Origin: an uncultured Pseudomonadota bacterium
GTDB lineage: Bacteria > Oederibacteriota > Muellerivitia > Muellerivitales > Muellerivitaceae
DNA: 64,000 nt
Direction of reading: 5' to 3'
Assembly (NCBI GenBank): GCA_963770835.1
Contig: CAVYRH010000003.1
Coordinates: 32,001 to 96,000, forward strand
The notes under the pieces are model-generated. The model made no database searches, was not told where the DNA came from, and saw nothing but the letters and a program-made list of their open reading frames with translations. A program made the position numbers and the translations under genes. Positions 1,229 to 45,147 of this stretch are shown here, one piece after another. Position 1 is the first letter of the stretch, and each line of letters opens with the position of its first letter.

Positions 1229-1257
1229 GGCGGGCGTACAAAAGGAAAGGGAAAATC

Positions 1258-2799
1258 GTGGGAATTTTTGAAGGCCGCAAACAAAGCAGGATCTGGTTCG
1301 CTGGATTTCTCCTTTTTTACGCCGTCTTTGCCCTCGCCACTTTCCGCCAGTACGGAGACACCTGCGACGAGGTCGACTGTTATTCCGGCGGAGGGGTCAT
1401 GCTGAGATATTATGCGGGCCACAGCACGGAAGTCCTCAATCCCGAATGGGCCTCCCATAACTACATTTATCCGGCTTTTTTGCGCGTCCTCTCCCTCAAC
1501 AAAGGGATTATTTTAGAACGGCTTCACCTGCTCAACTTGCTGTTCGCGGCCCTGGTTTTTTGGGCCTTTTACGAGCTTTTGTTTTTATATTTAGGGGACG
1601 GCCGGTGGGCCCTGATGGGGCCGATAGCCCTTTTCCTCATGCCGCGGTTCCTGGGTGATATCCCCGCCAACCCCAAGGACGCCACCTTCGCGGTGATCTA
1701 TTTTTGTGGGTTGGCGGCCATGATCCTGGCCAAGGAATGGTTCCACAGGCCATGGGCCCGGATTCTCTTCCTGGGTTTGATTTTCGGTTTCGCCTTTTGC
1801 CACCGGGTCGTCGGCCTGACCTTGTTCCCCCTTTACGCCTTCTTCCGGATCTATGAGGAAGCGGCCATTGAGCGGAATATTCCCCGCATCGGCTGGAAGA
1901 GATGGTTGTTCGGTGAGATCGGTAATGGAGCGTTGATTTTCCTGGCTTCCCAGCTTTTAGCCTGCGCCTTTTGGCCCTACCTGGCCACGGATTATTTTGC
2001 CCATTTCCGGGAGGCCTTGGCGCAGGGCCAAAAGTTCGAATGGGACAGCCCCATCCTTTTTGGGGGCGGGTTTGTCCAGCCTTCCCACCTCCCCTGGACC
2101 TACCTGCCCGGGTGGATCGCCGTCACCACCCCTCTTTTCCTTTTGGCGTTCTTCCTGTGGCGGTTGTTGCGTTGGAAGGGGTTTTTGAAGGATAGGATAC
2201 TGGTCCTGATGACGGCGGCTTTTGTCTTCAACTTTTCCCTGTATCTTTTCCTGCGCCCCGTTATTTACAACGCCTACCGCCATTTCATGTACTTGGCCCC
2301 GATCCTTGTCTTCATTGCTTGTTTGGGGGCCGTGGATTTTTACCGGAGCGTCAGGAACGGACCCGCCCGTTGGGTGGTGGCCGGCTTGTTGGCGGTGAAC
2401 ATCCTGGTGGTGGCTTCCCATTTGGTGCGCCTTTGTCCCTATTTCTATGTTTATTTCAACGAGGTGGTCGGCGGCGTACCGGGGGCCAACGGGAAATTTG
2501 AAATGGATTATTGGGGGCAGAGCCTGCGGGAAGCCAGCCTTTGGATGAAAGACAATATTCCAAAGGTTCCGGGGAAAACCTACCAGGTCAAACTGGACGG
2601 AAGCCCGTGGCAGGAGACGAATTATTTCCCGGCGTATATGACCGGCGCCGTCAAACTCAAACCCGGGAACGCCGACTATTACGTGGTCTTGAACGGCCTG
2701 AAGGGGGCCGACCTGCCCGAGGGAGGACGGGTAATCCATATCGTGGAAAGGGAAGGCGTCCCCCTAACCTATGTCCTTCAAATGAAAGGGAAACGGTAA
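1258..2799 (+). CDS. Polytopic membrane glycosyltransferase (GT-C/PMT-like)
   Basis: Many TM segments, N-terminal 'DE' in first loop (TCDE), NPKD motif, DYWG in C-terminal region. Confidence 0.7.
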   Translation: MGIFEGRKQSRIWFAGFLLFYAVFALATFRQYGDTCDEVDCYSGGGVMLRYYAGHSTEVLNPEWASHNYIYPAFLRVLSLNKGIILERLHLLNLLFAALVFWAFYELLFLYLGDGRWALMGPIALFLMPRFLGDIPANPKDATFAVIYFCGLAAMILAKEWFHRPWARILFLGLIFGFAFCHRVVGLTLFPLYAFFRIYEEAAIERNIPRIGWKRWLFGEIGNGALIFLASQLLACAFWPYLATDYFAHFREALAQGQKFEWDSPILFGGGFVQPSHLPWTYLPGWIAVTTPLFLLAFFLWRLLRWKGFLKDRILVLMTAAFVFNFSLYLFLRPVIYNAYRHFMYLAPILVFIACLGAVDFYRSVRNGPARWVVAGLLAVNILVVASHLVRLCPYFYVYFNEVVGGVPGANGKFEMDYWGQSLREASLWMKDNIPKVPGKTYQVKLDGSPWQETNYFPAYMTGAVKLKPGNADYYVVLNGLKGADLPEGGRVIHIVEREGVPLTYVLQMKGKR

Positions 2800-2807
2800 G
2801 AAACGGT

Positions 2808-3953
2808 TTAGGAGTGGCTCCCGTGGCCTGCCGATAGGTTCCTATAGATCCCGTAGATCTGGCCGGCGATCTTTTGATTGGTGTAAAGGCCCAAGACGCG
2901 CTTCCGGCCTTTGCGGCCTAGGGATTTCCGCAGCGTTGAGGAACCCGCCAGCTTTTTAAGCAATCCCGCCAATTTCAACACGTTGCCCTCGGGAAAGATC
3001 AGGCCCGCCTTATCAATCACTTCCGGGATGGCGCCCGAATCGGAGCCGATGACCGGCACCTCGCAGGCCTGGGCCTCGATGATGACCCTTCCAAACTGCT
3101 CCTTCCAGCGCTCCGTGGTGAGGGAAGGCAGGACCAGGACATCCATGCAGTTCAAGTAATCGGGAAGCTGGGGTTGGTTCATGGCCTTTACGAATCGGGT
3201 TTTATCCGCGATCCCCAGAGCCTTGGCTTTTTCCTCCAACTCCTCCCGCAGGGGGCCGTTGCCGATAATGAGCAGGTTCGAGGCGGGGCGGGCCAGTTTC
3301 GAGAAGGCCTCCAACAGGTGGCCGATGCCTTTTTCCGGGACCAGCCGGCCGACGTAGCCCACCGTGAAAGACCCCAAACCCAATTGTTTCTTGAGTTTCC
3401 GGGAATCCTTTTTTTGGAACAGCTTGGGGTTGACGCCGTATTGGGGGATCACCGAGGTGCGGGCCGGGGGATAACCGGCTTTCTTCAGCAATTGGGCGGC
3501 TTCCTGGTCGCCGGCGATGGCGTGGTCCGCGCGGCCAAGGACGTAGCCGCGGATATGCTGGTGGGGGAACTCGAAACGCTCCAGCAGGTTTTCCCAGGTG
3601 AAAAACACCAGCTTGGCCCGTAGTTTTTGGGCGGCGCGGGCGGCCTGCCAGGCCACAAGGCTGAAGGGTTCCTCCTCGACGTGGATGATGTCGGGCTTGG
3701 CATCCAGGACATGCGTGAAAAAGAAAGGGTAAAAATGGCGCTTGATGCGGCCCTCGAAGACGAGGGGGGCAGTGATGACGCGGAACCCCTCCGTTTCCGG
3801 CGGCTGGGGCTGGGGGAAAACCCTCTGCCCGGCCTCGGGCCAGGCCTTGGGCAGCAGGAGGGTCAATTCCACATCCCTCCTTTGGCAAAGAAGGCGCAGT
3901 TTTTCGCGGTAGGTGGGGATGACGGAGCTGTGGGAGATAAAAAATATCTTCAT
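2808..3953 (-). CDS. Glycosyltransferase family 4
   Basis: YVGRLVPEKG, EQFGRVIIEAQACEVPVIGSDSG (EX7E motif). Confidence 0.92.
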   Translation of the reverse strand: MKIFFISHSSVIPTYREKLRLLCQRRDVELTLLLPKAWPEAGQRVFPQPQPPETEGFRVITAPLVFEGRIKRHFYPFFFTHVLDAKPDIIHVEEEPFSLVAWQAARAAQKLRAKLVFFTWENLLERFEFPHQHIRGYVLGRADHAIAGDQEAAQLLKKAGYPPARTSVIPQYGVNPKLFQKKDSRKLKKQLGLGSFTVGYVGRLVPEKGIGHLLEAFSKLARPASNLLIIGNGPLREELEEKAKALGIADKTRFVKAMNQPQLPDYLNCMDVLVLPSLTTERWKEQFGRVIIEAQACEVPVIGSDSGAIPEVIDKAGLIFPEGNVLKLAGLLKKLAGSSTLRKSLGRKGRKRVLGLYTNQKIAGQIYGIYRNLSAGHGSHS

Positions 3954-4076
3954 GGGATGGTGATTGGATTATATTGAATGAACTTTTCAAATCCATTGAA
4001 ATTCGGGTGGCGTATCGGTTTGCCATTCCGAGCTTTGAACTGCGAAAAGGCAGGTAATACAGCGCAGGAACAACCA

Positions 4077-4154
4077 CCCTCATCCCAACCTTCTCCCCTT
4101 AAGGGAGAAGGAGCCAGTCTCCCTCGCCCCTTGGGGGAGAGGGTGGGGTGAGGG
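4077..4154. repeat. Intergenic REP-like inverted-repeat element
   Basis: CCCTCATCCCAACCTTCTCCC...GGGAGAAGG and CCCTCGCCCC...GGGGGAGAGGGTGGGGTGAGGG nested hairpins between divergent genes. Confidence 0.55.
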
Positions 4155-4252
4155 GTGCCTTGGAGGTTGTTCCTTAGTAAGGAAAAAAGTCGATAGGCTT
4201 GGTTTGCGACAAGCTTGTGGCGCGTTGGCCCAAAACGACGAAAAACCTGAGG

Positions 4253-4338
4253 TTGCCACGTCGGCAATCGCCCCGATTGGGGCGCCTCCTCGCAATGACA
4301 CCAATCATTACGACATGGTTCAAGGTTCTCGCAATGAC
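4253..4338. repeat. Second intergenic REP-like element (two CTCGCAATGAC ends)
   Basis: TTGCCACGTCG...hairpin CGCCCC/GGGGCG...CTCGCAATGAC, with CTCGCAATGAC repeated at ~4328-4338. Confidence 0.45.
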
Positions 4339-4365
4339 AACTTAAATAAAAGGCAGGGAAGTGCC

Positions 4366-5376
4366 GTGAAAGTTCTCATTGTGAAAATCGCCGCGGTCGG
4401 GGACGTGGTCATGGCCCTTGCCATGCTGGAACCCTTCCTCCAAAAGGACCCGGACGCCCAAATTACCTGGGTTTGTGGCAAGACGGTTGAACCCCTCCTG
4501 CGGCAGGTTGGAAAAATACATGAACTCATCGTGGTGGATGAAGCCAAGCTGTTGAAGGGCGGGTTCATCCCAAAAGCCCTGGCCTTGGCCGGCGTTTGGG
4601 CCAAGCTTTTGGGGAGGCGGTTTGATTTGGCGGTGACGGGCCACTCGGACCCGCGCTACCGGCTTTTAAGCCTTCCGGCCTCCGCGGCAATCCGCCGGGG
4701 TTTCGGCAAACAAGCGGACGGAAGAACAGGGCCGGTGAGCGGACGGTATCACGCGGATGAATATGCCCGCCTGGCGACGGGGGCGGACGGCCCAACGGCG
4801 GTAAAAGCTTCCATCCCCATCCTTCGGCTGCCTTTACCGGCGGAGTTGGAACAGATTCTCCAGCCGGGAAAGAAAATCGTCGCCCTCGCCCCGGGCGGCG
4901 CCAGGAACATCCTGAGGGATGACGCCCTCAGGCGATGGCCGCTGGAAAATTACGCCCAATTGGCGGAAAAGTTCCTGCGGGACGGGTTTCAAGTGCTGGT
5001 GACGGGCTCTTTATCGGACTTTTGGATCAGGGAATCCTTCAAAAATATGGCCGTCACCGATTTAGTGGGCCAAACACCCCTTCCGGACTTGATCGCCCTT
5101 TATGGGAAATGCCATCTGGTGGTCACGCACGACAGCGGGCCGCTTCACCTGGCTGTCGCATCGGGCGTTCCGGTTTTAGCCCTCTTCGGCCCCACCGTTC
5201 CGATGGAGAAGGTTCCCGTCAGTGAAAAAGTCAGCGTGATTTGGGGCGGAGAACATTTGGCCTGCCGGCCCTGTTACGATGGAAAAAATTACGCCGATTG
5301 CAACGACAACCAGTGCCTGAAAAGCGTCGGGGTGGAACGGGTTTATGCCGAGGCCAGCCGGATGCTCCGCGGATAG
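4366..5376 (+). CDS. Glycosyltransferase family 9 (LPS heptosyltransferase-like)
   Basis: GTG start VKVLIVKIAAVGDVV, RRWP, HDSGPLHLAVA, LFGPT, CRPC. Confidence 0.9.
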   Translation: MKVLIVKIAAVGDVVMALAMLEPFLQKDPDAQITWVCGKTVEPLLRQVGKIHELIVVDEAKLLKGGFIPKALALAGVWAKLLGRRFDLAVTGHSDPRYRLLSLPASAAIRRGFGKQADGRTGPVSGRYHADEYARLATGADGPTAVKASIPILRLPLPAELEQILQPGKKIVALAPGGARNILRDDALRRWPLENYAQLAEKFLRDGFQVLVTGSLSDFWIRESFKNMAVTDLVGQTPLPDLIALYGKCHLVVTHDSGPLHLAVASGVPVLALFGPTVPMEKVPVSEKVSVIWGGEHLACRPCYDGKNYADCNDNQCLKSVGVERVYAEASRMLRG

Positions 5377-5521
5377 GACCCGCATTGGACAGTCAAAAGT
5401 AAGTTGGAGTGGCATTTTGGAAAATCAAATTGACATAAAAGAGACCATGAAAGTCCTTTTGAACGCCTGGTGTGACCGTCGTTGCTTCCGTGCACTTCGG
5501 TTCATTTTACAAGGATGGCCG

Positions 5522-5668
5522 ATGCCCATGGGTTTGACTGACGATGTGAACAACTTATTAACCGCCCTGAAACACGTCCGGTCAATGGCAAGGGATGAGT
5601 TGACTGAAAAGGAGCTATATCAAGTTGACGCCATAGTGATTCAAGTTGAGAAAGCCTTAAACCGGTGA
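5522..5668 (+). CDS. Small hypothetical protein (cassette)
   Basis: 48-aa helical ORF ending just before hairpin site 5684. Confidence 0.5.
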   Translation: MPMGLTDDVNNLLTALKHVRSMARDELTEKELYQVDAIVIQVEKALNR

Positions 5669-5762
5669 ATTGAACAATTTGAAGTTGTCCACGATAGGGA
5701 CCCGGATTGGACAAGGAATCATGGTAAAGATAGAACCGTTTTAATAAGAAGAAGGAAAATCG

Positions 5763-6260
5763 ATGATTCGCTTGAGGGAACTGGTTGAGGGGGATGCGGA
5801 TATTCTTTTTCCCTTAATTTTTAAAACGCCTGTTACCGCTACCATATTGTGGGACGGACCCGATTCCATTGATTCTTACAGGAAAGCTATGGATTTGCGG
5901 CAAGCGCAGACACGGAACGGGGAAGCCCATTTTTTCGTCATCACTGAAGTAAGCACAAATAAACCTATCGGAACTATAACGATTCGCCCGGAAGAGAATA
6001 AGCTCCGGGGCGATATAGGACTTTGGATTGGGTTGCCCTTTCAGAGAAAGGGTTATGGTACCCAAGCCGTGAAAGATATTGTGAAATACGGTTTCGAAAA
6101 ATTAAGGCTTCAGAAAATTGAGGCGACAGTCTTTTTGGGTAATTTGGGCAGCCGAAGAATTTTCGAAAAAAACGGGTTCGTTTTAGAAGGAACAATCCGA
6201 AAGGCCTCATTAAAGCGTGGGAAGCTTATTGATGAATGGCTTTTAGGGATTGTTGAGTAA
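5763..6260 (+). CDS. GNAT N-acetyltransferase, RimJ/RimL type (cassette)
   Basis: IG.WIG..FQRKGYGT, N.GSRRIFEKNGF.LEG motifs. Confidence 0.92.
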   Translation: MIRLRELVEGDADILFPLIFKTPVTATILWDGPDSIDSYRKAMDLRQAQTRNGEAHFFVITEVSTNKPIGTITIRPEENKLRGDIGLWIGLPFQRKGYGTQAVKDIVKYGFEKLRLQKIEATVFLGNLGSRRIFEKNGFVLEGTIRKASLKRGKLIDEWLLGIVE

Positions 6261-6313
6261 ATATCTTTTCAATAGTCTAAGTTTGCCTACGACGGGGACC
6301 CAGAGTGGACATC

Positions 6314-7111
6314 GTGCCAGAGGAGGGTTTGCAGAGCCAGCAGGTGAGGGAGTAGGCCGATGAGGGTCAACCCAAGTCCTGACCAGGTAATCACCAGAGA
6401 GCCTGGAAGTCAGCCCCCGGCGTAGGATCGAGAGGTCCTGCCCGAAACGGGGTCATAAACCTCATTTAGTGAGGGAACAATCCAGCAGTCCGCAACATCA
6501 AGTGAATCCTGCCGCTTCGTGAATGGGACACCGAAAGGTGCAAGGGGATGCCGAGCCGCGTGTCTACTGGCGAAGGCCACGATCCCGCTGAAGAATCTGG
6601 TAGCAAGCGGGGCAAGTCCTCCGGAGTATGGGGAACGGAATGTTGGAAAGGCTATGCAAGCAAGCTGGGAGATCCTACCCGCCAAAAGACTTGCCGCTAT
6701 AAGGCTAAAACCGAAAAGAGGCAAGGGTGGGAGGAAGTCGGAGGGGGTCACAGTACCGATGAAGGGGTGGACAACAAAACCACCCTGAGGGAAGGACCCC
6801 TGCTTCAACCATGTGTCTCAAAGAAGGTAGGCGCTGGAGCATGCCCCAAAAGGGCCAACAACTCTGTAGTACCAAAGCGCGAGGCCTTTGACAACAGGCA
6901 CTATGCCGAGCGGCCAAGGGGGAAGTCGAACCTGTAAAGCCGCCGGAGGAGAGGTTGTCGGAAAGCCGTATGATCGAAAAGGTCACGTACGGTTTGACGA
7001 GGGGGCGCTGGAAACGAAGTGATGAGGGAACCTCGTTGGGGCACGGAACCGGAAACGGGGAAACAGATCAAGGAACCCTCTGCACACCATCGCGCCAGTG
7101 CTCTACTCTGC
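6314..7111 (+). mobile_element. ORF-less group II intron, copy 1
   Basis: Starts GTGCC right after hairpin site; domain V GAAAGCCGTATGATCGAAAAGGTCACGTACGGTTTG at ~6961; DVI end CTCTACTCTGC; closely similar to the RT-containing intron at 7446 but with the RT internally deleted. Confidence 0.88.
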
Positions 7112-7130
7112 AGCCTAGAAAGAGGAAACT

Positions 7131-7385
7131 ATGAAGAAATCTGTAACGCAGCCCTGGAACAAAAAGAAGGCCATCCAGGTCGGTGGTCCGCACACGGGCA
7201 TCGAATTCTTAAAAATCCCCAAGCCCGCGCAAAGGGCCCTTCTCAACAATGGCATCCGCACCATTGCCGATCTTTCAAAAAGAACAGTGGAAGAGGTGAA
7301 AAAGTTCCATGGAATCGGGCCTTCGACCTTTCTGGTTTTGAAACAAGCGCTTCGCCAGAACGGGATAACTTTTAAAGAGTCTTAA
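7131..7385 (+). CDS. Small HhH / RNA polymerase alpha-CTD-like DNA-binding protein (cassette)
   Basis: PAQRAL...GI.TI.DL......E....HGIGP motif. Confidence 0.75.
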   Translation: MKKSVTQPWNKKKAIQVGGPHTGIEFLKIPKPAQRALLNNGIRTIADLSKRTVEEVKKFHGIGPSTFLVLKQALRQNGITFKES

Positions 7386-7990
7386 TAACCTACCGTTTTA
7401 AACTGTCATGGAAGTTGTCCACGACGGGGACCCGTCGTGGACATCGTGCCAGCGAAGGTTTGTAGAGCCAGCAGGTGAGGGAGTAGGCCGAAGAGGGCCA
7501 GCCCAAATCCTGACCAGGTAATCGCCAGAGAGCCTGGAAGTCAGCCCCCGGCGTAGGATCGAGAGGTTCTGCCCGAAACGGGGTCATAAACCTCATGCAG
7601 TGAGGGAACCATCCAGCAGTCCGCAACATCAAGTGAATCCTGCCGCGTCGTGAATGGGACACCGAAAGGTGCAAGAGGATGCCGAGCCGCGTGTCTACCG
7701 GCGAAGGCCATGATCCCGCTGAAGAATCTGGAGCAAGCGGGGCAAGTCCTCCGGCGTACGGGGAACGGAATGTTGGAAAGGCTTTGCAGGCAACCTGGGA
7801 GATCCTACCCGCCAAAAGACTTGCCGCTATAAGGCTAAAACCGAAAAGGGGCAAGGGCGGGAGGAAGTCGGAGGGGGTCACAGTACCGTTGAAGGGTGGA
7901 CAACAAAACCACCTGGAGGGAAGGACCCCTGCTTCAACCAAGCAACCGGAAAAGGGAGGCGCTGGAGCATGCTCCAAAGGGCCAACAACT

Positions 7991-9513
7991 GATATGAATG
8001 AGCCAGTCAAGCCCGCTGGTTTTTCCTTTGGTTTTATCCTACTCTTTTCCACCTCAAGGCCCTGCGAAAAGCCCTGATCTCGAAAGCCCGGCTTGTTTCG
8101 ACGATGAATCAAACTGATATTCGCGTGTTAGACCCATTGCTGGTTCCAGGGACGCAAGATTTTCATTCGTCGGGAGCTGCCTCGATCTCTGATCGTGGGT
8201 CGTCGCAGGCTTAGGCCTTTGCGCCACAGAGTTGTACCGAGGGTTCTCCAAATCGTTGCCAAGCTTCCGGAAACAGGGTTCTTCCTTCATGACCTTGTTA
8301 AACCATTCCTGTTGTTTCCTGGGCGATGGCCCACACAAATCCAGCCAACTCCCGGGCTACGGCCACCACTACTTTTTGGATGGGCTTGTTACGTTGGGTC
8401 ATTTTTAGAAACTTTTTGTACAGACGATCCTGTGCTCTGCGGGCGATCTTTAAAATCTCCACCGGACAACCCTCCCGCCTTTTTTCTAAAACCACGCCGA
8501 CCGACTTCCCATGGCGGTAACTCCAAGCCGATTCCACAAGAATCCGTCTCAAATGGGCGTTCCCGGTCTTGGTGATTCCTCCCCGACGGATTTTTCCACC
8601 TGAACTGCTTTCACATATCCCCAAACCCGCGTAACCCATGAAATTACGAGCGCTCTCAAATCGCCTCAAATCTTGGCCTTCCACCGCCAAGGTCATGGCG
8701 CTCAAGGTATCAACCCCTTTCAGGCACCTCAAATGCTTGACCAGTTTCCTGTAGGGTTCTTGGCTGGCCATCTCCTCCACTCGGCTCGTCAAACTCCTCA
8801 ACCGCTCATCTGCCTCTTGCTTCCCGCGGACATATGCCTCGAAAGTCTCATGCAGTTCCAGAGGTTCGAACTTTTGGGTTTTCAGCCATGCCTCATGGGC
8901 TGATCTCCAATTCTTAGCTTCTCGAAAGATACGACCTTGCCGAAGAAAGAAATTCGACAACCGGTGCCGGGCCTTTTGCCGGTCTTCTAGGGCATCCTCA
9001 CGAACTCGAACCAGATCCCGACAGGCTTCCTCTTGGATGGTCGGAACCCGCACTTCCGTCAGCTCTCCCGCCCTCCAAAGACGGGCCAACTTTTCCGCAT
9101 CTCGGCGGTCTGTCTTCACCCGATCCCCGGCTTTCACTGGAATTTTCCCAGGGGCGATTACGACGCACTTCAACCCCTTTTGGGTTAATTGCCGGTGGAT
9201 GTCATATCCACAAGGGCCCGCCTCGTACACAAACGTTATTGACCCTCGTCCTTCGTACTTACCCAGCATTTTCCCCAATGCTTTTGGGGTGTTCTCGATT
9301 GTAAAAATATCCTTCACATTTTCGGCCCTAGCCGGCAGGACCGCACCTACCACCGTATCCTTATGGACATCCAACCCGACCACCGTGATATTATTTTCCA
9401 TGAGCCAGCCCTCCGTATGCGGATAGGCTCCCTCAAGGAGCAACCCGCGAATTAGGGCCCTTCAACAAGGCCCGTTTTATTTTACGCAGGCCGCTGGCTC
9501 ATTCATGTTATCT
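7991..9513 (-). mobile_element. IS110 family (IS1111-like) element inside the intron RT gene
   Basis: Subterminal IRs ATGAATGAGCCAG (7994-8006)/CTGGCTCATTCAT (9494-9506), CT core on both sides, ~300 bp non-coding region 3' of the transposase. Confidence 0.88.
8298..9401 (-). CDS. IS110 family transposase/recombinase
   Basis: VGLDVHK, YEAGPCG, KTDRRDA, SSGG...GGITKTGN, VAVAREL. Confidence 0.95.
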   Translation of the reverse strand: MENNITVVGLDVHKDTVVGAVLPARAENVKDIFTIENTPKALGKMLGKYEGRGSITFVYEAGPCGYDIHRQLTQKGLKCVVIAPGKIPVKAGDRVKTDRRDAEKLARLWRAGELTEVRVPTIQEEACRDLVRVREDALEDRQKARHRLSNFFLRQGRIFREAKNWRSAHEAWLKTQKFEPLELHETFEAYVRGKQEADERLRSLTSRVEEMASQEPYRKLVKHLRCLKGVDTLSAMTLAVEGQDLRRFESARNFMGYAGLGICESSSGGKIRRGGITKTGNAHLRRILVESAWSYRHGKSVGVVLEKRREGCPVEILKIARRAQDRLYKKFLKMTQRNKPIQKVVVAVARELAGFVWAIAQETTGMV

Positions 9514-9602
9514 CCGAAGACAAGGCGCGAACCCTTCAAAGGGCGCTATACCGAGCGGCCAAGAGGAGCCCAAGCCGAAGATTTCATGTACTGCATGACA
9601 GG

Positions 9603-10790
9603 ATGACCCGATGGGATGTCCTGACAGCGGCATGGAAACAGGTGAAGGCTAATAAAGGCCAAGGAGGAGTGGACGGGGAAACGCTGGAATGGATTGAAGA
9701 GAAAGTGGGGACTATTCCATTCCTGAAGGGCATTCAGGAAGAACTCAAGGCTGGGAAGTATCTGCCTAAACCTGTGAGACGAGTGGAAATACCCAAACCC
9801 GATGGTAGCAAGAGGCCGTTGGGAATCCCGGTGATTCGGGATCGGGTAGTTCAAGCGGCTTGCCGGAAGTTGGTGGAACCCATCTTTGAGGCGGACTTTC
9901 TGGAAGGCTCGTTTGGATTTCGGCCAAAACGCGGAGCCCAACAGGCCCACCGGGAGATCAAGAAGTGGATCAACGGGGGGTACACATGGGTGGTCGATGG
10001 AGATATTAGGAAGTACTTCGATTCCATCGACCACGACAAACTGATGGTGCTTGTGCGCCAGAGGGTCAGTGATCGAAAGGTTCTGAAACTGATCCAAGGG
10101 TGGCTGAAGGCGGGTGTGTTTGAGGAAGGAAGGCTTACGCCGACTCTCCGAGGGACACCGCAAGGCGGGGTGATCTCACCGCTGTTATCCAATGTTTACC
10201 TTCACTTGCTGGACAAGGTTTGGAATAAGAGGCACAGGAAACTGGGTAGGCTGGTGCGCTACGCCGACGATTTTGTGGTGTTGTGCGGAAGCCAAGCCCA
10301 TGCGGAAAAGAGCCTGGAAGTCATCAAGGAATTGATGGGACGACTAGGGCTTGAACTGCACCCCGAAAAGACACGGCTGGTGGAAATGGGGCCTGGGAAG
10401 GAAGGGTTTGACTTCCTTGGGTTCCACTTTCGAGTAGGTATGCCGGTGGTAGGATTGGGTAAGACCTGTTGCCTGAGCTGGCCGAGCCGGAAGGCCATGA
10501 AGAAAATCGCCGAGAAAGTGAAGCAGATGACGGCGGGCCGAGAGCGGCTCTTATCTCCAATGGAGGATGTAGCGAAGGCTTTGAACCCGGTGTTAAGGGG
10601 GTGGGTCAACTATTTCCGAATTGGGGACAGCCAGCCATACTTTTCCAAGCTTCAATTTTACGTACTCGAAAGGCTGACTTTGTTCCGGAGGCGTAAGTAC
10701 GCCTGGGAAGGACGAACATGGTCGATCGAGGAAGTGAAACGCCTTGGTTTGAACTGGATTCCAGCTTTTGCCTTGAATGCTGCCGGTTGA
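9603..10790 (+). CDS. ltrA: Group II intron reverse transcriptase/maturase (no endonuclease domain); true start at 7969 separated by IS
   Basis: RPLGIP..RDRVVQ, SFGFRP, DI..YFD.IDH, GTPQGGVISPLLSNVYL, RYADD, GFDFLGF, LNP.LRGW.NYF. Confidence 0.95.
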   Translation: MTRWDVLTAAWKQVKANKGQGGVDGETLEWIEEKVGTIPFLKGIQEELKAGKYLPKPVRRVEIPKPDGSKRPLGIPVIRDRVVQAACRKLVEPIFEADFLEGSFGFRPKRGAQQAHREIKKWINGGYTWVVDGDIRKYFDSIDHDKLMVLVRQRVSDRKVLKLIQGWLKAGVFEEGRLTPTLRGTPQGGVISPLLSNVYLHLLDKVWNKRHRKLGRLVRYADDFVVLCGSQAHAEKSLEVIKELMGRLGLELHPEKTRLVEMGPGKEGFDFLGFHFRVGMPVVGLGKTCCLSWPSRKAMKKIAEKVKQMTAGRERLLSPMEDVAKALNPVLRGWVNYFRIGDSQPYFSKLQFYVLERLTLFRRRKYAWEGRTWSIEEVKRLGLNWIPAFALNAAG

Positions 10791-10985
10791 AAGGTTGTCG
10801 GAAAGCCGTATGATCGAAAAGGTCACGTACGGTTTGATGAGGGGGCGCTGGAAACGTGGTGATGAGAGCCGGACTGAGGCCCAATCCGAAAGGGTTGGAT
10901 TCGCCACCGTACTCTAAGGCATACGCGCCAGCGCTCTACTCTGCGGTAGAAAAAGCTTACGAAGCCTCGAAGCATATGGGGGGGG

Positions 10986-11450
10986 GTGAATTCTTATCAT
11001 GAGGCGTTTGAATACAATGGAGATATTCCAGACATACTCATCGATAACACTTCTCTTGAGGACTGGAAACGGATGATGGAATACGCCCTTCGTTTTGGCG
11101 CACGACTTCATTTTCAAGCGGAAGGTGAAGACGAAGAAAAATCTATTTCAACCGATTTCAAATTTTTGTTCGGTCCGAAAAAACCCTATGTAGATATATT
11201 CATCGACTTCGATGAGATGGGGATAATCGGGCGTGCATTCTCTCCTGAATCAATTCTCATGGATGTGGACCTACGCGAAATTAATTCTTCTCAAAAAGAG
11301 GAAGCGTTCATCAAGTTTTTTCAGGGTTTAACCAATGCCCTCGGCAAAGAATGCGGCGTCAGCGAAAATGCCAATTATCCACCTTTTCTTAAATTCCTCC
11401 CCGGGGGAGACAATCCGATTTACGAACCTTCTTGTAAGATAAAACCGTAA
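10986..11450 (+). CDS. Hypothetical protein (cassette)
   Basis: 154-aa ORF between intron end and hairpin site 11452. Confidence 0.65.
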   Translation: MNSYHEAFEYNGDIPDILIDNTSLEDWKRMMEYALRFGARLHFQAEGEDEEKSISTDFKFLFGPKKPYVDIFIDFDEMGIIGRAFSPESILMDVDLREINSSQKEEAFIKFFQGLTNALGKECGVSENANYPPFLKFLPGGDNPIYEPSCKIKP

Positions 11451-11612
11451 ATTTGTCCACGACGGGGACCCGTCGTGGACAACAAAGAATTGTAAAAAAG
11501 GTCATTTCAAAGGGTGCCCGCAACTCTCATGCCTCTTAAATTTGTATTTTGAGGTAATCTTTATTGGTCTCACGTCCTTAGGAACGTTAGTATTTCGAGA
11601 ATTATTGATTGG

Positions 11613-13292
11613 GTGACACCAGTGAAATGTCTGTCGCAAAAGAAAACCGTCGGCTTTTCGCGAAAATCGGTTTTAAAAACTTTAGCGTTTTCTTTTATAA
11701 CCTTTTGCCTATTGTTCGTCCATTCTTCAACCTGGGCCATCCCGACTTCTGGTACCAATTTCTGGCTGTGCTTTCCATATGCTGAACCTTCAGCCGAGCA
11801 ATACATTGTTTTGCTTCTCGCCAGCAATATCGCCACTACCGCTACTGTTTTGGATCCTACTGCGGGAACCGCAACTTATACCATCACACCCGGCTCTACG
11901 ACCGCGGTAACGCTTCTACTTGCCGACCAAATGAACCCGGCCAACGATGATACGGTCACGCACTTAGGGATCCAGGTTACATCCCTGGATGCTATTTCGG
12001 TCTATGGAATCAATTACATTCAATTTAACACGGACGGTTACCTAGCATTGCCGGTCAACGCCCTGGGAAACAGTTATATCGTGGTCAATTACGAATGTGA
12101 GGGAAGCGGCTTTGAAGTTCAAAGTGAATTTTCGATCGTTGGGACCCAAAACGCAACCAGCGTGACCATCACACCTTCCGCCGCCGCGGATTCCCAGACT
12201 GCGGGAATCCCTTACGTCATTGCCTTGAACCAGGGTGATACTTATGAATTGGGCACGACCATCATCGGTGATGACTTAACTGGAACCCTGATCCAGTCAA
12301 ACCAGCCCATCGCGGTCTTTGGGGATAATGCCGTAGCCCAGGTTCCCACTGCCTATCCTTCAGGAAACCAGTTACTTGAGGAGCTTTGGCCCGTCAACGA
12401 TTGGGGCACAAATTTCGTGACCCTCCCTTTGGCTACCCGGACAGGAGGAGACACCTTCCGATTCTTGGCTTCGGTCAACGGAACCACAGTGAACGTCAAT
12501 GGAACAGTTTTACCAGTGCTCAACCAGGGCCAATTCGCCGAGCAGATCATCGCGGCCCCGGGATGGATCACGGCCAACAATCCCATTTACGTCACCCAAT
12601 ATTCCAATAGCCACAGTTACGATTGCGGCCTTGGCCTTGTTTGTATGGATGCGGATCCTTTCATGATCACGGTCCCGCCGACGAGCCAATACGGGAACAA
12701 TTACTTGACCAGCGTTTTGCCCCCGAGTTTTGGATTCTCGCCCAATTATGAAAATTTACTCGTTCCCACCTCGGCGGTTGGCGCGGTCTCGCTGGATGGA
12801 GCAGCAATTCCAGCGGCCAGTTTCGTTCCTATCGGGGCTAGCGGTTATTCAGGTGCGGCTGTATCGGTTTCGGCGGCGGAACATGTGCTCGTAGGCGTGG
12901 CGCCTTTCGGCGCCTTGGTTTATGGATTCAATACCTCGGATGGGTATGGTTATCCCGCTGGGTCTTTGGTGAGTAGCGCCACCGCCACCGCGACCGTACT
13001 TCCTACTTCGATCCCCACGTCCCCCTGTGCCATCCATGTTTGGCCCGATCCCTTTAACCCCCAATATGCTATTGGCGGAACCTTAAAAGTCGGCTGTCTC
13101 CCGCCCGGGGCCACGGTGTCTTTTTATACTGTTTCGGGAGAACTGGTGAGCCAAGTGAACGAAGCCGGTGGAATGGCTCAATGGGCTGGAACCAACCGCC
13201 AGAACCTATTGGTTTCGTCGGGAATTTATTTCTACGTCATCCAAAACGGAAGTAATGTTCTGGGGCGGGGCAAGTTTCTGATTAACCGTTGA
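11613..13292 (+). CDS. Secreted IgGFc-binding-like protein with FlgD-like C-terminal domain (cassette)
   Basis: Signal-like N-terminus, GT.FW, D.YLALPV.ALG..Y, DL.GT.I.S..PIAVF, DPFM..VPP..QY, YGYPAG; C-terminal PDPFNP...W.G.N....VSSGIYFY. Confidence 0.75.
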   Translation: MTPVKCLSQKKTVGFSRKSVLKTLAFSFITFCLLFVHSSTWAIPTSGTNFWLCFPYAEPSAEQYIVLLLASNIATTATVLDPTAGTATYTITPGSTTAVTLLLADQMNPANDDTVTHLGIQVTSLDAISVYGINYIQFNTDGYLALPVNALGNSYIVVNYECEGSGFEVQSEFSIVGTQNATSVTITPSAAADSQTAGIPYVIALNQGDTYELGTTIIGDDLTGTLIQSNQPIAVFGDNAVAQVPTAYPSGNQLLEELWPVNDWGTNFVTLPLATRTGGDTFRFLASVNGTTVNVNGTVLPVLNQGQFAEQIIAAPGWITANNPIYVTQYSNSHSYDCGLGLVCMDADPFMITVPPTSQYGNNYLTSVLPPSFGFSPNYENLLVPTSAVGAVSLDGAAIPAASFVPIGASGYSGAAVSVSAAEHVLVGVAPFGALVYGFNTSDGYGYPAGSLVSSATATATVLPTSIPTSPCAIHVWPDPFNPQYAIGGTLKVGCLPPGATVSFYTVSGELVSQVNEAGGMAQWAGTNRQNLLVSSGIYFYVIQNGSNVLGRGKFLINR

Positions 13293-13328
13293 TTTTGGCT
13301 GTCCGCGACGGGGACCCATCGTGGACAG

Positions 13329-14697
13329 GTAACATGATGGCCATTCCACCGCCGGGATTAAACTATTCCCGGTGAGTAGCCACTCATAAGGAGGAATGAC
13401 CATGAAACAGATTAGCAAAAAAGGATTCCAAGGCAAGGAGGTATCCAAGCGGGACGCCGTGTTTGTGGGGCTCGATGTCCACAAACGAAGTATTTACGTA
13501 GCAATCAGGATCAATGGAAAGGAAACCGGAACCAAGTCTGTGCCCGCGGATTGGGAAGCTGTGGTGAAGGTTCTGGAGCCTTACCGAAAAGGGTTAAAAA
13601 AGGTCGTCTACGAGGCAGGACCTACTGGCTTTGGCTTGGCACGTCGCCTTCGGGAAGTGGGATACCCATTGGACGTCATCGCCCCGAACAAAACACCTCG
13701 TGTAGCTCAGTTGGAAACAAAATCCGACCGGTTGGACTGCCGCAAGCTGGCGGAGTACGCCGAAAAGGATCTCTTGCGGGCTGTGGCGATCCCAACCCTC
13801 CAGGAAGAAGCGGATCGGCAAGTGGTGCGTTTGAGAAACGCGATGGTGGAACAAAAACGCAAGGCCAAACAAAGGATCAAAAGCTTTTTCCTCCAATATG
13901 GATTCAAGGAACCTAGAGGGCTGGATTACTGGACCCACGAGGCCATCGGAGTTTTGCGGGATATGGAACTGCCGCCGGCCCTGAGATTCACGTTGGATAG
14001 CCTATTGGAAGATCTCTTTTACTTTGATAGGCAGCTTAAAGACGTGAACATACGTTTGCGGGTCATGATGAAGGACAAGGCCTACGAGAAAAAGGCTAAG
14101 ATCCTCAGGTCCCACCCGGGAGTGGGTGAAGTAACGACCCTGCAAATGTTAACGGAGATTTACCAGCCGGAGCGCTTTCAAAACGCCAAACAGGTGGCGG
14201 CTTACGTGGGGTTGGCCCCAAGGATCAGGCAAAGCGGAGAAACTCGAAAGGAAGGCCATTTGCAGAAGGCCGGAAAAGGAACCTTGAGGGCTACCTTAGT
14301 TGAAGCTGCCTGGTCATGGATTCAAAAGGATACCCAGGCCAACCGCGTTTTCCGCCGGTTCGTCCGTAATACGGGGCATGTCAACAAAGCGATTGTGGCA
14401 ATGGCTCACAAGCTTTTGATTCACCTTTGGACTATGTTGGTTCGAAAGGAAGTTTATCGGCCCATGCTCTAAAGAGGTTTCAGCCTCAGTTTCGTGATTC
14501 GACCCCTTAGGAATGACCACGAGTTTTAGCTGTGCCTTAGGCACGTTGGACAGGTGGTGGCTTCCCTCAGGATTATCGAATTCTTATCTTGTGCCTCGAG
14601 CACGAATAGCAGCGTGAATCCACGAAACCAAAAGGCTGACCGTAGGAGAAAATTGGACTTGAGGAATGGCCTCATAGCAGGAATGGCCTCATAGCAG
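13329..14697 (+). mobile_element. IS110 family (IS1111-like) element inserted at hairpin site, copy 1
   Basis: CAG core on both sides, subterminal IRs ATGATGGCCATTCC/GGAATGGCCTCAT; apparently identical copy at 49922-51290. Confidence 0.9.
13396..14472 (+). CDS. IS110 family transposase/recombinase
   Basis: VGLDVHK, YEAGPTG, KSDRLD, QSG...GHLQKAG, AIVAMAHKL. Confidence 0.95.
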   Translation: MTMKQISKKGFQGKEVSKRDAVFVGLDVHKRSIYVAIRINGKETGTKSVPADWEAVVKVLEPYRKGLKKVVYEAGPTGFGLARRLREVGYPLDVIAPNKTPRVAQLETKSDRLDCRKLAEYAEKDLLRAVAIPTLQEEADRQVVRLRNAMVEQKRKAKQRIKSFFLQYGFKEPRGLDYWTHEAIGVLRDMELPPALRFTLDSLLEDLFYFDRQLKDVNIRLRVMMKDKAYEKKAKILRSHPGVGEVTTLQMLTEIYQPERFQNAKQVAAYVGLAPRIRQSGETRKEGHLQKAGKGTLRATLVEAAWSWIQKDTQANRVFRRFVRNTGHVNKAIVAMAHKLLIHLWTMLVRKEVYRPML

Positions 14698-14748
14698 GTA
14701 AAATTGGCTCAGCTGGGGGTTGGTCAACATGACCTGGGGGGATAAAAA

Positions 14749-15144
14749 ATGGAAGATTTGAAAGAAATCGCCCAAACGATATGCCGGTACCCCCTCATAT
14801 CGGACAAATCGATTCAAGATTATTTAAAAGAATCCGGATTTATGGACCACCGGAAGAACATTTGTGTTGAAGACTTCAAAGAATATTTAGAAGGCCACAA
14901 GGATTTAATAGATAAATGGATTGGGTGGTCAGACAAACGAACGGATTTTGGGTGGACATTCAGCAGTTGGGGGCAGGATGGATATTATCGGATCACTGGA
15001 TATGGCATCAAAGATCCCAAACCGAATCTGGGCCATGAATTAACATTTAAAAGTTCAATTGATGCGGTTGCGACCTATATCAGTCTCGAAATGAATGCTT
15101 GGGCTCAGTTTAACGAAAATAAGCAACCCGGAAAATGGTGGTAA
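14749..15144 (+). CDS. Hypothetical protein (cassette)
   Basis: 131-aa ORF with RBS, ends before hairpin site 15165. Confidence 0.7.
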   Translation: MEDLKEIAQTICRYPLISDKSIQDYLKESGFMDHRKNICVEDFKEYLEGHKDLIDKWIGWSDKRTDFGWTFSSWGQDGYYRITGYGIKDPKPNLGHELTFKSSIDAVATYISLEMNAWAQFNENKQPGKWW

Positions 15145-15268
15145 CGGATTTTTGATAGTTCATGGTTGTCCGCGACGGGGACCCTTCGTGAACAACGAAA
15201 ATAATGGATAATGGTATTCAGGCACTTTCAGCATAAAGATGGTTTACAAAATTTGGGGGGCAGACCAC

Positions 15269-16279
15269 ATGGACTTGCTTATTGATACTTACGGTACCAA
15301 GATCGGCGTAAATGGCGAGCGCATCGTCCTTTCTTTTCCGAAAGTTAAAGAGAAAAAAGAATACCCCATCCATAGACTGGAGAAAATAGTCATACTGCGG
15401 CCGGCCTCGCTCACGACTCACGCGGTTCAGCTCGCGATTGAGCACGATGTTGATATCGTCTATCTCGGTTCTTTTGGCAAGCCCATCGGAAGACTATTTT
15501 CAAGCGAACCAAAAGGGCTGGCGAGTCTTCGTAAAGCGCAACTGGAAGCGTCAACTTCGCTTGAGCGATCGTTCAAAATCGCGAAAGAATTAGTGCGGGG
15601 CAAATGCGCTAATCAGCTCGATCTACTCCGATATCTCGCGTACCGATATAAAAAGGATGTGGGGACCGAACTCTTACAAGCGCAGACCCTTTTTGATGTC
15701 TTGGACAATGTCCCGTGTTCGGAGAAAGGCAAGGAGCAACTCCTTGGTACGGAAGGATACATCGCGGACAAATATTTCAGCGGGTTAAAAAAATTCTATA
15801 GATTCCCGGGCCGAAAACCACAAGGCAGGGACCAGTTTAACAGCGTACTGAATTATGGTTAGGGCATCCTTTACAATGAAGTCGAACGGGCATGCCTTTA
15901 CGTCGGTCTTGATCCATATCTCGGCCTCTACCACAGTGAACGCTATGGTAAGCCTGCCCTCGTTCTCGATCTTGTCGAAGAATTCCGCGTACCAATCGTC
16001 GACTCGGTGCTTTTCCCGCTTTTCATAGAAAAGAAACTGAGCCAACGGAAATATTTTGAAAAAACCGCGGTTGGGCAATATCTGTTATCGCCTGAGGGAA
16101 AAAGCGTCGTGGTGGGGGCGATCATGAGGCGGTTGAATGAAACGACGGCATGGCGGGGGAAACAATATACTCTTAAGCAGATCATAGATAACCAGATTAG
16201 GGCGTTGGCACGTCACTTTGTCGAAAAGGAGGACAAGTACAACCCGTTTCGTGCGGAAAAACTTTTTTCGATATCATGA
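15269..16279 (+). pseudogene. cas1: CRISPR-associated integrase Cas1 with premature TAG at 15860-15862
   Basis: LLGTEG..A..YF, D.FNS.LNYG[*]GILY.EV..A....GLDPYLG.YH, ALVLDLVEEFR.PIVD; frame continues after TAG to 16279; duplicate at 29065-29067 has TAC. Confidence 0.93.
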
Positions 16280-16611
16280 ACAATTTCAATGCCATCACCC
16301 TAGTATCGTGGGAAACGCGCGACTGGCGGCATCGGGACAAGGCGGTTCTGTGGTGCAAGAATTATGGTCTCAAGCCGGTTTTCCGGAATATGTATATCGG
16401 AAAATTGTATTCAAAAGAACGGGAAAAACTCGAGAATAAATTCAAGGGGGCTTTCGCAAAGAAGACCGAAAAGTTTTTTATCAGTACGCTCTGTCGGTCG
16501 TGCTTTGAAGATTCGGTTTTCGGTGGTACGCTTAGTTCTAAGAAAGATGATGTCGACATTGAAACTGCGTTTGAACTTATCCAAATCACGCCGAATTCGG
16601 CGGAACGGTGA
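16276..16611 (+). CDS. cas2: Divergent Cas2-like protein
   Basis: Overlaps cas1 stop (ATGA); LVSWETRD..R......KNYGLKPVFRNMYIGKL....LCRSC aligns with the Cas2 LV.YDI.D..R.....K.YG..VQ.SVF.G.L...lC..C pattern. Confidence 0.75.
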   Translation: MNNFNAITLVSWETRDWRHRDKAVLWCKNYGLKPVFRNMYIGKLYSKEREKLENKFKGAFAKKTEKFFISTLCRSCFEDSVFGGTLSSKKDDVDIETAFELIQITPNSAER

Positions 16612-16633
16612 AAAACACCAATAATTGCAGGCT
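16612..16633 (+). promoter_or_regulatory. Very short (22 bp) putative leader
   Basis: AAAACACCAATAATTGCAGGCT between cas2 stop and first repeat; TGCAGG is the reverse complement of the repeat start CCTGCA. Confidence 0.5.
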
Positions 16634-16670
16634 CCTGCACATGCCTGTCGCAAAAAGGATAGTGTGCAAC
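16634..16670 (+). repeat. 37-bp direct repeat 1
   Basis: Exact match to consensus. Confidence 0.97.
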
Positions 16671-16815: not shown

Positions 16816-17643
16816 ATGAAAACCAGAGAGAATATACAATTACAACCATTTTTAAAATGGGCTGGCGGTAAACGTTGGCTGGTTTCTAAATACTCAAAAA
16901 TATTTTTAAAACCGTTTAATACTTATTTTGAACCATTCCTGGGTAGTGGGGCGGTGTTTTTCCACTTAAAACCAAAAAAATCAGTTCTTTCAGATGTTAA
17001 TAAAGACTTAATCGATACGTTTCGTGCGATAAGGAATAATTGGAAAGGTGTTGTAAGTGAATTGAAGAAGCATAATTCGAAACATTCCACAAATTACTAT
17101 TACAAAATGAGAGATTGGAAGCCCAATTCCGCCAATAAAAAAGCTGCACTTTTTATTTATTTAAATCGCACTTGTTGGAATGCTTTGTATAGGGTTAATA
17201 AAGAGGGGAAGTTTAATGTCCCTATTGGAACGAAATTAAATGTTTTACTTGAAACGGATGATTTTGAAGCAGTTTCTAATGCCCTAAAAAATGTAACATT
17301 CAAAGACGGAGATTTTGAACATATTTTAGATACGGCAAAAAAAGGGGATTTCATTTACCTTGATCCGCCTTATACGGTTACACATTCAAATAACGGATTT
17401 ATTAAGTACAATAATCATATTTTCAAATGGGAAGATCAATGCCGACTAGCAAGTGTTTCAAAAGATTTGATAAACCGCGGCTGTGCAGTTGTTATAAGCA
17501 ATGCTTATCACAACAGTATCTTTGATTTATATAAAGGGTTTTACTATTTGGGTTTGAAACGCCACAGCCTTTTAGCCGCCGATCCAAGGAAAAGAGGAGA
17601 TTATAAAGAGTGCCTTTTTTCGTCTTTCCCAATCAAAATTTGA
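16816..17643 (+). CDS. Dam-family DNA adenine methyltransferase
   Basis: KWAGGK, YFEPFLGSGAV, LNRTC.NALYRVN..G.FNVP, YLDPPY. Confidence 0.93.
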   Translation: MKTRENIQLQPFLKWAGGKRWLVSKYSKIFLKPFNTYFEPFLGSGAVFFHLKPKKSVLSDVNKDLIDTFRAIRNNWKGVVSELKKHNSKHSTNYYYKMRDWKPNSANKKAALFIYLNRTCWNALYRVNKEGKFNVPIGTKLNVLLETDDFEAVSNALKNVTFKDGDFEHILDTAKKGDFIYLDPPYTVTHSNNGFIKYNNHIFKWEDQCRLASVSKDLINRGCAVVISNAYHNSIFDLYKGFYYLGLKRHSLLAADPRKRGDYKECLFSSFPIKI

Positions 17644-17655
17644 CGGGAGTTTACA

Positions 17656-19580: not shown

Positions 19581-20282
19581 ATGTGTGTCTCCTACCAACT
19601 AAACCTCCCCATTAAAGACATCGCCAAGACCTTTAAAGCGAAGCCCCCCAAGAAGATTCTCTGGGACCCCTCCAAATTAGAAAGAATCCGGCCTTCCCAC
19701 TTGGTCCCCATCATCATGGTCGACCCCGCAACAGGGGAGAGGGTCATCAAGGAAATGATTTGGGGAATGCCCTTTTTCGACTTCCTGAAAAAGAAGCTGG
19801 TCAGGCACCACCTTTTCAACGCAAAGGCCGAAACCATCACCGAAAAGAAAACCTTTAAGACCAACTTCCAAAAAAACCGCATCCTGGTCCCCATCAACCC
19901 GGCCTTCATCGAATGGAAAGACGTCGGCGGAAAGAAAAAACAACCCTACCTTATCGGCTTAAAACCCAAGGCCCCCTTCGCCTTTGCCGGCATTTGGGGG
20001 AAGTGGAACCTCACAGTTGAGGACGATAAGACGCTTGAAGCGAAGTTTAATGTGAACCCGAAATATGACCCTCCAAAGAAGGACTTTGAGTTTTACACCG
20101 TCATCACGACCACACCAAATGAGCTTATGGCCGACATTCACAACCGAATGCCTGTCATTCTGGACCCCAAGAACTACGACGCCTGGCTGGACCCTAATAT
20201 CCCGGACGCGGGGATCCTCAAAGGCCTATTAAAGCCCTACCCGGCCGCCAAGATGCAAGCCAAAGCCGCGGAGAAAGTTTAA
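19581..20282 (+). CDS. SOS response-associated peptidase (SRAP/HMCES)
   Basis: N-terminal MC, FNAKAET, F.EW, FAGIW, IHNRMPVIL. Confidence 0.93.
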   Translation: MCVSYQLNLPIKDIAKTFKAKPPKKILWDPSKLERIRPSHLVPIIMVDPATGERVIKEMIWGMPFFDFLKKKLVRHHLFNAKAETITEKKTFKTNFQKNRILVPINPAFIEWKDVGGKKKQPYLIGLKPKAPFAFAGIWGKWNLTVEDDKTLEAKFNVNPKYDPPKKDFEFYTVITTTPNELMADIHNRMPVILDPKNYDAWLDPNIPDAGILKGLLKPYPAAKMQAKAAEKV

Positions 20283-45145: not shown

Positions 45146-45147
45146 CC

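Follow-up and report, generated by a model that had tools for sequence, protein, structure and literature searches.

A 28-bp palindrome as the probable joint of an integron-like cassette system, with a shortened serine recombinase as candidate enzyme

What joins a row of small, unrelated, mostly co-oriented genes that are separated by copies of one short palindrome, and what could move them? The question is raised by a 64,000-bp stretch of DNA from an uncultured bacterium (assembly GCA_963770835.1, contig CAVYRH010000003.1, positions 32,001 to 96,000), here called the window. We refer to the genome under study as G000 and to the window as G000:C3:32001-96000, and positions are those of the window unless a contig is given. 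A preliminary description had reported an integron-like array at 5366-15196, delimited by a ~30-bp hairpin that is not an attC site, and had proposed a distinct cassette-capture system with a recombinase encoded elsewhere. Our analysis supports that proposal and refines it in two respects: the site probably acts in double-stranded form and not as a hairpin, and the candidate for the enzyme is a serine recombinase of reduced length. From sequence comparison we consider it fairly likely that the palindrome, of 28 bp, joins the cassettes of an integron-like system and serves as the double-stranded crossover site of this recombinase, which would cut at the central GA.

The consensus of the site is TGTCCACGACGGG-GA-CCCGTCGTGGACA, a palindrome of two 13-bp arms around GA. 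A matrix scan of the genome gave 90 matches above 12 bits, 87 of them above 20 bits, while a triplet-shuffled control gave one match at 13.3 bits, and within each contig of G000 every copy lay on one strand. The pattern was present in 26 of 30 genomes of the family and in the single genome of a sister family (27 of the 31 others of the order, or 28 of 32 with G000 counted) and in 0 of 29 genomes from other orders. Among the matches listed, at least 80 genome loci, the labels were mostly candidate division FCPU426 and the rest were loose, and IMG/VR viral sequences held no exact match. In 583 distinct sites conservation was confined to the 28 bp and weak preferences at one to three flanking bases, and GA was kept in 550; the flank counts show no conservation of the GTT...AAC ends that had been ascribed to the best copies. 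The window contains 14 sites in one orientation, seven in each of two groups, as described before: 12 were found by consensus match (at most seven mismatches, plus strand), one is a hybrid at 5364-5391 and one, at 52584-52610, is one base short.

To define the units between the sites, 337 cassettes were cut from G000 and from selected array regions of nine relatives. Neighbouring sites were co-oriented in 342 of 356 pairs, and the longest open reading frame (ORF) ran with the site in 260 of 275 simple cassettes, with median distances of 54 bp from the preceding site to its start and 22 bp from its end to the next site. Median GC was 46% and the median distance between sites 837 bp (406 cassettes). 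A Pfam scan of 83 cassettes from 18 loci in three genomes found genes for type II toxin-antitoxin systems in at least 17. Whole cassettes were shared at 85% or more by 16 cross-genome pairs, and none of 20 comparable neighbours was the same, while three comparisons within genomes did have a neighbour in common. One 975-bp cassette was 100% identical in two genera and one of 800 bp was 99.7% identical across genera, each between different neighbours. Cassettes of one or two genes, whose ends coincide with the sites, are thus found again in other genera and next to other neighbours. The preliminary description had named two outcomes contrary to its proposal, an ordinary repetitive extragenic palindrome (REP) dispersed in both orientations between core genes and a conserved gene order between sites; instead, the sites lie co-oriented in accessory clusters and the neighbours of shared cassettes differ. 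We therefore regard a cassette system as very probable.

Is the site used as folded or as double-stranded DNA? Covariation between the arms was absent in 11 of 13 pairs of positions (|z| ≤1.7) and reached z 3.1 and 3.8 in the other two, and a test of whole-arm pairing in integrated sites gave z −0.65 and 0.04. Perfect copies fold strongly (z −4.5 and −5.6), but frequent right-arm variants break the stem. The lack of covariation, together with variants that ruin the hairpin, argues against a folded substrate, and a site that does not covary and is no attC looks like a double-stranded crossover site; it probably acts as such rather than as a hairpin. Of the ~30-bp hairpin reported earlier the palindrome is real, with a conserved unit of 28 bp, whereas several copies fold poorly (5686: z −1.3; 5364: z −0.3).

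The point of exchange was approached by comparing sites that share one flank, after pairs next to introns or insertion sequences (IS) had been dropped; the pairs are not independent. Positions 16-28 differed 4 times in 16 pairs with a common downstream flank, as compared to 41 times in 20 pairs with a common upstream flank, and the right half thus moves with the downstream cassette. In 37 hybrids that match the site in the left half only, agreement with the consensus was 0.76-0.89 over positions 12-15 and fell to 0.35 at position 16 and 0.08 at position 19. Retention of GA, linkage of the right half and the failure of left-only hybrids at position 16 favour exchange at or near the central GA. 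Serine recombinases have a 2-bp core, and an exchange placed there would be of serine-recombinase geometry. Apparent right-only junctions with one common left flank were excluded, because this flank proved to be where a second group II intron, inserted between positions 11 and 12, has its 3' end.

A candidate enzyme of this type is encoded in G000 on another contig than the window (G000:C17:12078-12905). The protein has 275 aa, and the stop codon of the gene lies 14 bp before a convergent site. Pfam finds Resolvase (PF00239) and Recombinase (PF07508) only; Y14, R16 and S18 as well as D87, R88 and R91 are invariant, and a structure model matches (Foldseek) the structures of the Bxb1, phiC31 and Listeria integrases. 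It belongs to a clade of 19 proteins (275-283 aa, 68-100% identity), all of which end before the zinc-ribbon cysteines, with zinc ribbon and coiled-coil absent; the next relatives, at most 59% identical, include many with a zinc ribbon. In the catalytic part dN is 0.02-0.11 against a dS of at least 0.7, and the gene is under purifying selection. A survey of gene ends, with 23 matches to the last 77 residues in 32 genomes, showed that all 15 short-form 3' ends (nine genomes) abut a site, 13 of them a whole site and two a right half, always convergently and within ~70 bases, as compared to 0 of 8 long-form ends. Many full-length relatives end in tRNA-like sequence or tRNA genes, without such a site. 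ArdC was found upstream of the intact short gene in three of five loci and RadC in two, and over 18-20 kb upstream no further site was present in four of five genomes. Viral relatives numbered 37, none with a site, and one plasmid relative was found (31%). A 260-bp conserved non-coding element lies between the short recombinase and ArdC in three genomes, with copies 69-85% alike (L015:11550-11810, with a second copy ~2.3 kb away; L375; L377). No tyrosine or serine recombinase was among 77 window ORFs scanned, which agrees with the earlier statement that the window lacks an integrase. When 2598 ORFs of at least 120 aa around arrays were clustered, no recombinase recurred in at least three labelled genomes, and the short serine enzyme formed a cluster of six members. 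A candidate for the co-occurring recombinase that had been proposed for a search is thus present beside the site, at the end of some arrays, and we hold it rather probable that it is the enzyme of the cassette system.

In the mechanism that we propose, one recombinase subunit would bind each 13-bp arm; a study of the Listeria integrase gives its recombinase domain a 13-bp contact area (PMC3783163). The non-palindromic GA would hold all sites in one direction. Two direct sites would recombine to excise the cassette as a circle, and recombination of site with site would reinsert it. Loss of the zinc ribbon and the coiled-coil would remove attP/attB directionality and allow any two sites to react; in the same study, all four site pairs excise with a Listeria integrase that lacks the coiled-coil (PMC3783163). 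Rare crossover at chromosomal look-alikes may seed new arrays and probably makes new cassettes. The first site of the array, at 5364-5391 (plus strand), is a hybrid by its sequence: a GT9 glycosyltransferase gene (stop codon 5374-5376) supplies the left 13 bases with its end, GA and a normal right half follow, and it is likely the pseudo-site at which the array was seeded. The enzyme would be carried on mobile islands of the ArdC/RadC type and serve many distant arrays in trans, toxin-antitoxin cassettes would probably limit the loss of arrays, and introns and IS110 elements would exploit the site as a landing place.

Several observations weigh against this reading. A strict central crossover predicts near-zero differences in the left half of upstream-sharing pairs, but positions 1-13 differ 8 times in 20 such pairs and 8 times in 16 downstream-sharing pairs (random, 0.89 per pair), so that the left arm follows neither flank cleanly. 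Among the hybrids, most of the 27 right-only ones are probably matches by chance, and insertions of other repeats account for some left-only ones. Of 32 genomes of the order, only 5 were found to have the intact short recombinase and 9 its 3' ends, while 28 have sites, and the site-rich genomes G023, G025, G012 and G018 gave no match to it. The 15 junctions at its 3' ends are kin and may descend from one event, and adjacency to a site is equally expected of a cargo gene; the recombinase module of G000 has a site on either side. For the Listeria integrase, the study cited above reports ~25-fold weaker binding upon deletion of the zinc domain and no intermolecular integration upon deletion of the coiled-coil (PMC3783163), hence reinsertion by the short enzyme would need compensation. 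Contigs of five public DNA runs contained neither an excised circle nor a cassette-skipping joint, which in itself is no evidence either way; a joint from 7400 to 5681 in one run is probably a misplacement at a stretch edge.

Could the same cassette system be served by another enzyme, with the short serine recombinase as a passenger? The site can also be read as 11-6-11, as a tyrosine recombinase would, either the core Xer or one of the multi-copy island integrases of 360-375 aa. A single Xer-like gene has the same range as the site, being present in 30 of the 31 other genomes of the order and in 0 of 29 outside it (E 1e-30), and the sites run from origin to terminus in 17 of 20 clusters, with 7 of 8 pointing away from dnaA and 10 of 12 towards xer (hand count, among the clusters listed). 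Selection for co-directional transcription is the simplest reading of this orientation, which does not tell the mechanisms apart, and GC skew was too weak for placing the replichores. Attractive by its co-distribution, the core Xer was dropped because a dif-like palindrome of its own was found at the xer loci: all 28 loci with upstream DNA have an AT-rich palindrome of 28 bp that differs from the cassette site in that its arms covary, and no cassette site lies within 1.5 kb of xer in any of 30 loci. The order has many island integrases and some lie 1-10 kb from sites, but at least three of six in G000 have no site nearby. Furthermore, the hybrids retain GA yet change at position 16, inside the supposed 6-bp overlap. 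We consider a tyrosine enzyme unlikely, if deserving of attention.

The palindrome directly upstream of xer (L001:10010-10045 and L021-L049; 11-6-11, arms covarying across 28 loci) overlaps a probable promoter and is likely the dif site of the order, a label that we presume from single-Xer systems. The six tyrosine integrases of G000 are paralogues of 356-371 aa, most of them beside tRNA genes (C5:233290, C5:241383, C10:70284, C1:7328, C2:210367 and C26:882158), and one begins ~700 bp after a site.

A dedicated enzyme might not be required at all, if the palindrome were a dispersed repeat or safe landing place and cassettes were lost, duplicated and swapped by homology between 28-bp copies, through slippage or host recombination, for instance in natural transformation. 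In line with this, the left arm is tied to neither flank, one pair with 60 common downstream bases differs at positions 19-21, and many site-rich genomes show no recombinase. However, the tight flanking of new genes by sites would be left unexplained, as would the near-invariant GA, the sharp linkage of the right half, the hybrids that switch at the core and a conserved recombinase fixed beside the site, and we find this explanation improbable. We give slightly less credence to a hairpin of the REP kind that an HUH transposase (Y1/RAYT) would spread in single-stranded form, with neighbouring genes carried along. The strong folding of perfect copies, the strand bias with replication and 11 matches to Y1 transposases in the genome agree with it, and pairing is slightly in excess in reconstructed circle junctions (z 2.3, p 0.015, in one of four tests). 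Integrated sites, on the other hand, do not covary and their common right-arm variants break the stem; flank counts of the 583 sites show no conserved tetranucleotide at the hairpin foot, the pairs are co-oriented rather than inverted doublets, and the Y1 genes are multi-copy, none recurring beside arrays across genomes. That the site is a degenerate attC, in a true integron with IntI as its enzyme, is close to refuted. Cassette size, orientation, toxin-antitoxin content and targeting by introns and IS resemble sedentary integrons, but the site has 28 bp, no RYYYAAC/GTTRRRY boxes (its not being an attC had been recognised before) and no extrahelical bases, exchange appears to fall near the middle and not at the 3' end, and IntI (TIGR02249) was found in 0 of 32 genomes at E 1e-40, a search in which the control genomes gave no positive either and the core Xer scored 76.6 bits against a cut-off of 265.

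As to the origin of the site, its inner part (bottom strand) resembles the 5' end of tRNA-Glu (G000 C5:213645 and C8:236656). An origin from the 5' end of tRNA-Glu/Gln is possible, as a resemblance only; in a check of this, the matches listed did not include the opposite ends of four elements with a full-length recombinase.

The array at 5364-15194 consists of six small cassettes and three passengers at 3' site edges, all on the plus strand apart from one nested transposase. After the hybrid site come a 73-aa hypothetical (5447-5668, no Pfam match), a site with a right-arm variant and a weak hairpin (5686-5713; consensus match, weight matrix and folding), a GNAT acetyltransferase (5763-6260, window ORF scan) and a site at 6284-6311 (consensus match and weight matrix). 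An ORF-less group II intron of type A (6312-7111; Rfam, empty allele in a public contig) sits at the 3' edge of the latter, followed by a helix-hairpin-helix protein (7131-7385, ORF scan) and a perfect consensus site (7416-7443; consensus match, weight matrix and folding). A longer intron of type A (7444-10944; Rfam, ORF scan) encodes a reverse transcriptase/maturase (9603-10790) and contains an IS110 transposase on the minus strand (8298-9443, ORF scan). Next are a 154-aa hypothetical (10986-11450; ORF list and scan), whose stop lies 3 bases 5' of the second perfect site (11454-11481; consensus match, weight matrix), a protein with an IgGFc-binding domain (11613-13292, ORF scan) and a site at 13300-13327 (consensus match, weight matrix). 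An IS110-family element (13326-14694, ends ±7 bases; ORF scan, empty public allele) with its transposase at 13396-14472 occupies the 3' edge of this site, and a 131-aa hypothetical (14749-15144; ORF list and scan) precedes the last site (15167-15194, weight matrix), after which the cas1 cassette begins. The sites and cassettes reported for this region are thus real, but ~5.7 of its 9.8 kb are the two group II intron copies, one with IS110, and the IS110-family element.

The second group of seven sites, on the plus strand and found by consensus match except for the copy that is one base short, starts at 48556, 49487, 49893, 51904, 52584, 54014 and 55259 (48556-55286). Its cassettes encode GNAT, transglutaminase, tetratricopeptide repeat (TPR) and hypothetical proteins, with a copy of the IS110 element and of intron A. 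The unrelated genes previously listed are present (GNAT at 5763 and 51301, transglutaminase at 51892, TPR at 54057), and the AT-rich character of the cassettes was confirmed, with 31-52% GC in 13 cassette ORFs as compared to 57% for 422-5376. The array runs past the window to a last site at G000:C3:110866, and an O-antigen ligase homologue follows just after, ~73.5 kb from the GT9 gene. No site follows any of six orthologous GT9 genes, and in three of these loci the ligase gene is directly next; therefore the window shows most of one large inserted island. The public runs that contain the region are soil metagenomes, with no RNA run among those listed.

The edges of two passengers are confirmed by public contigs that lack exactly the 800 bases of the intron at 6312-7111 and the 1369 bases of the element at 13326-14694. 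Intron A (6312-7111, 7444-10944 and, by Rfam, 52611-53410 on the plus strand) is always at the 3' site edge, and its empty allele indicates that the mobile unit exceeds the usual intron ends by two bases on the 5' side and by a few on the 3' side. The second intron type inserts into the site itself, after position 11 (G000 C3:106043-107995, C2, C4, C11, C16, C20, C23 and C24), and many copies are then followed by intron A. The IS110-family element (13326-14694; 49921-51290, after the site at 49893; G000 C3:103118 and C8:165044) is found at either edge of the palindrome, in opposite orientations, and is a natural candidate for analysis of bridge-RNA targets.

One cassette appears to be a capture system in itself. 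The cas1 cassette (15195-16670, plus strand) has an internal stop in this copy of cas1 (15860-15862), at which two public runs differ from the window, and continues with a Cas2-like gene (16276-16611, plus) and a 37-bp repeat of the CRISPR type (16634-16670, plus). Ten exact copies of this repeat lie on the plus strand at 16634, 28721, 29839, 32336, 34891, 37151, 38986, 43250, 45789 and 57971 (16634-58007), spaced by 1.1-12 kb of DNA. Cas1, the Cas2-like gene and the repeat form what appears to be a second capture system, nested in the array. G000 has 27 such repeats, and its 21 gaps shorter than 15 kb measure 0.2-12 kb; one gap consists of a second cas1-cas2 from the unit itself, which stops precisely at the repeat, and others include pieces of IS and of arrays. 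Further arrays of the unit are at C3:383301-400905, C15:11428-17231 and C16:21525-37475, and a second repeat variant also occurs. The Cas2-like protein had no Pfam, NCBIfam or useful PDB match; Atlas matches to Cas2 at 0.88-0.89 are a lead. Cas1 was present in 5 of 99 genomes at 96-100% identity, and the cassette protein is 99-100% identical in three genera. The unit stands behind a 28-bp site in G000, G004 and G014, and the right arm of the site at 15167-15194 is common to the cas1 cassette in 3 of 3 places in G000 and in two other genera. From these comparisons, the unit evidently travels across genera as a cassette of the 28-bp system.

The cargo between the 37-bp repeats (16816-19499, 19581-20282, 26830-28101 and 44387-46817) includes a Dam-type methylase with a DndB-like protein, SRAP, Pol V-type ImuB/UmuC, a PD-(D/E)XK nuclease and a GmrSD-FecR fusion. 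Right after the last repeat, a malectin and RHS-repeat gene begins in several broken frames (58001-64000). Upstream of the array, a short repeat between glycosyltransferase genes (3950-4161) has high depth in all four runs. Elsewhere in the genome, C7:173000-177400 holds atypical genes (long GC-rich frames, a different tRNA-Trp and integrase), a possible contamination of the bin.

Integrons are the textbook platform for cassette capture and are found via IntI and attC. If the same logic is realised here with a serine enzyme and a 28-bp double-stranded site, such systems would be invisible to these searches and would show that gene capture has evolved convergently. Purifying selection appears to act on a natural integrase that lacks the zinc ribbon and the coiled-coil, although engineered deletions suggest poor binding and no integration. 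If active, a 275-aa recombinase with a 28-bp site would be a candidate for a compact tool, and the arrays offer a collection of accessory genes that are still uncharacterised. We found no description of the cassette system or of the unit with kilobase spacers in the literature, most subscription journals and bioRxiv supplements being outside the scope of the search.

How, then, does the system compare with those already known? The pdif modules of Acinetobacter plasmids (XerC/XerD) likewise have 28-bp sites that bound movable gene modules and are served in trans, but pdif sites are dif-like, AT-rich and typically alternating, whereas those described here are GC-rich, direct and chromosomal and are distinct from the dif-like site of the host Xer. 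REPs, bacterial interspersed mosaic elements (BIMEs) and REPINs with REP-associated tyrosine transposases (RAYTs) also are short palindromes with many extragenic copies and targets of IS110; in contrast, our sites are confined to accessory arrays in one orientation, their halves reassort and the foot tetramer is not conserved. With the large serine recombinases (phiC31, Bxb1 and the Listeria LI/A118 integrase) the candidate shares the catalytic domain with the YxRVS serine motif and the recombinase domain, and the system a pseudo-palindromic site with a central dinucleotide. It differs in that the natural protein stops before the zinc ribbon and the coiled-coil, and in that a single short type of site is present dozens of times, where those systems have one attP and one attB, each of 40-50 bp. 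The system thus probably uses a derivative of this family without its directionality domains.

The closest likeness is to integrons, above all sedentary chromosomal ones, and to clusters of attC sites lacking integron integrases (CALINs). As in these, co-oriented, AT-rich and mostly one-gene cassettes are each bounded by a repeat, many encode toxin-antitoxin systems and GNAT proteins, arrays lie far from the enzyme, and the site is used by group II introns and IS110 elements. An attC site, however, has ~55-140 bp and RYYYAAC...GTTRRRY boxes and is used as a folded single strand with a covarying stem and extrahelical bases, whereas the site here is a 28-bp palindrome without the boxes or structural covariation. 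Exchange, probably near its centre, would make each joint a hybrid, and the candidate is a serine recombinase, convergent at the downstream end of an array, with arrays scattered over many loci. Co-oriented, shuffled gene cassettes are found here as in integrons; the system is integron-like in working, yet it is not an integron, as three defining features that we tested were absent. Taken together, the balance tips modestly towards a second, independently evolved form of integron, in which a phage-type serine integrase that lost its directionality domains would act on a minimal 13-GA-13 site as universal joint, with capture at look-alikes, shuffling, and transfer between genera across the order, including that of a Cas1-Cas2 unit that would itself capture kilobases of DNA.

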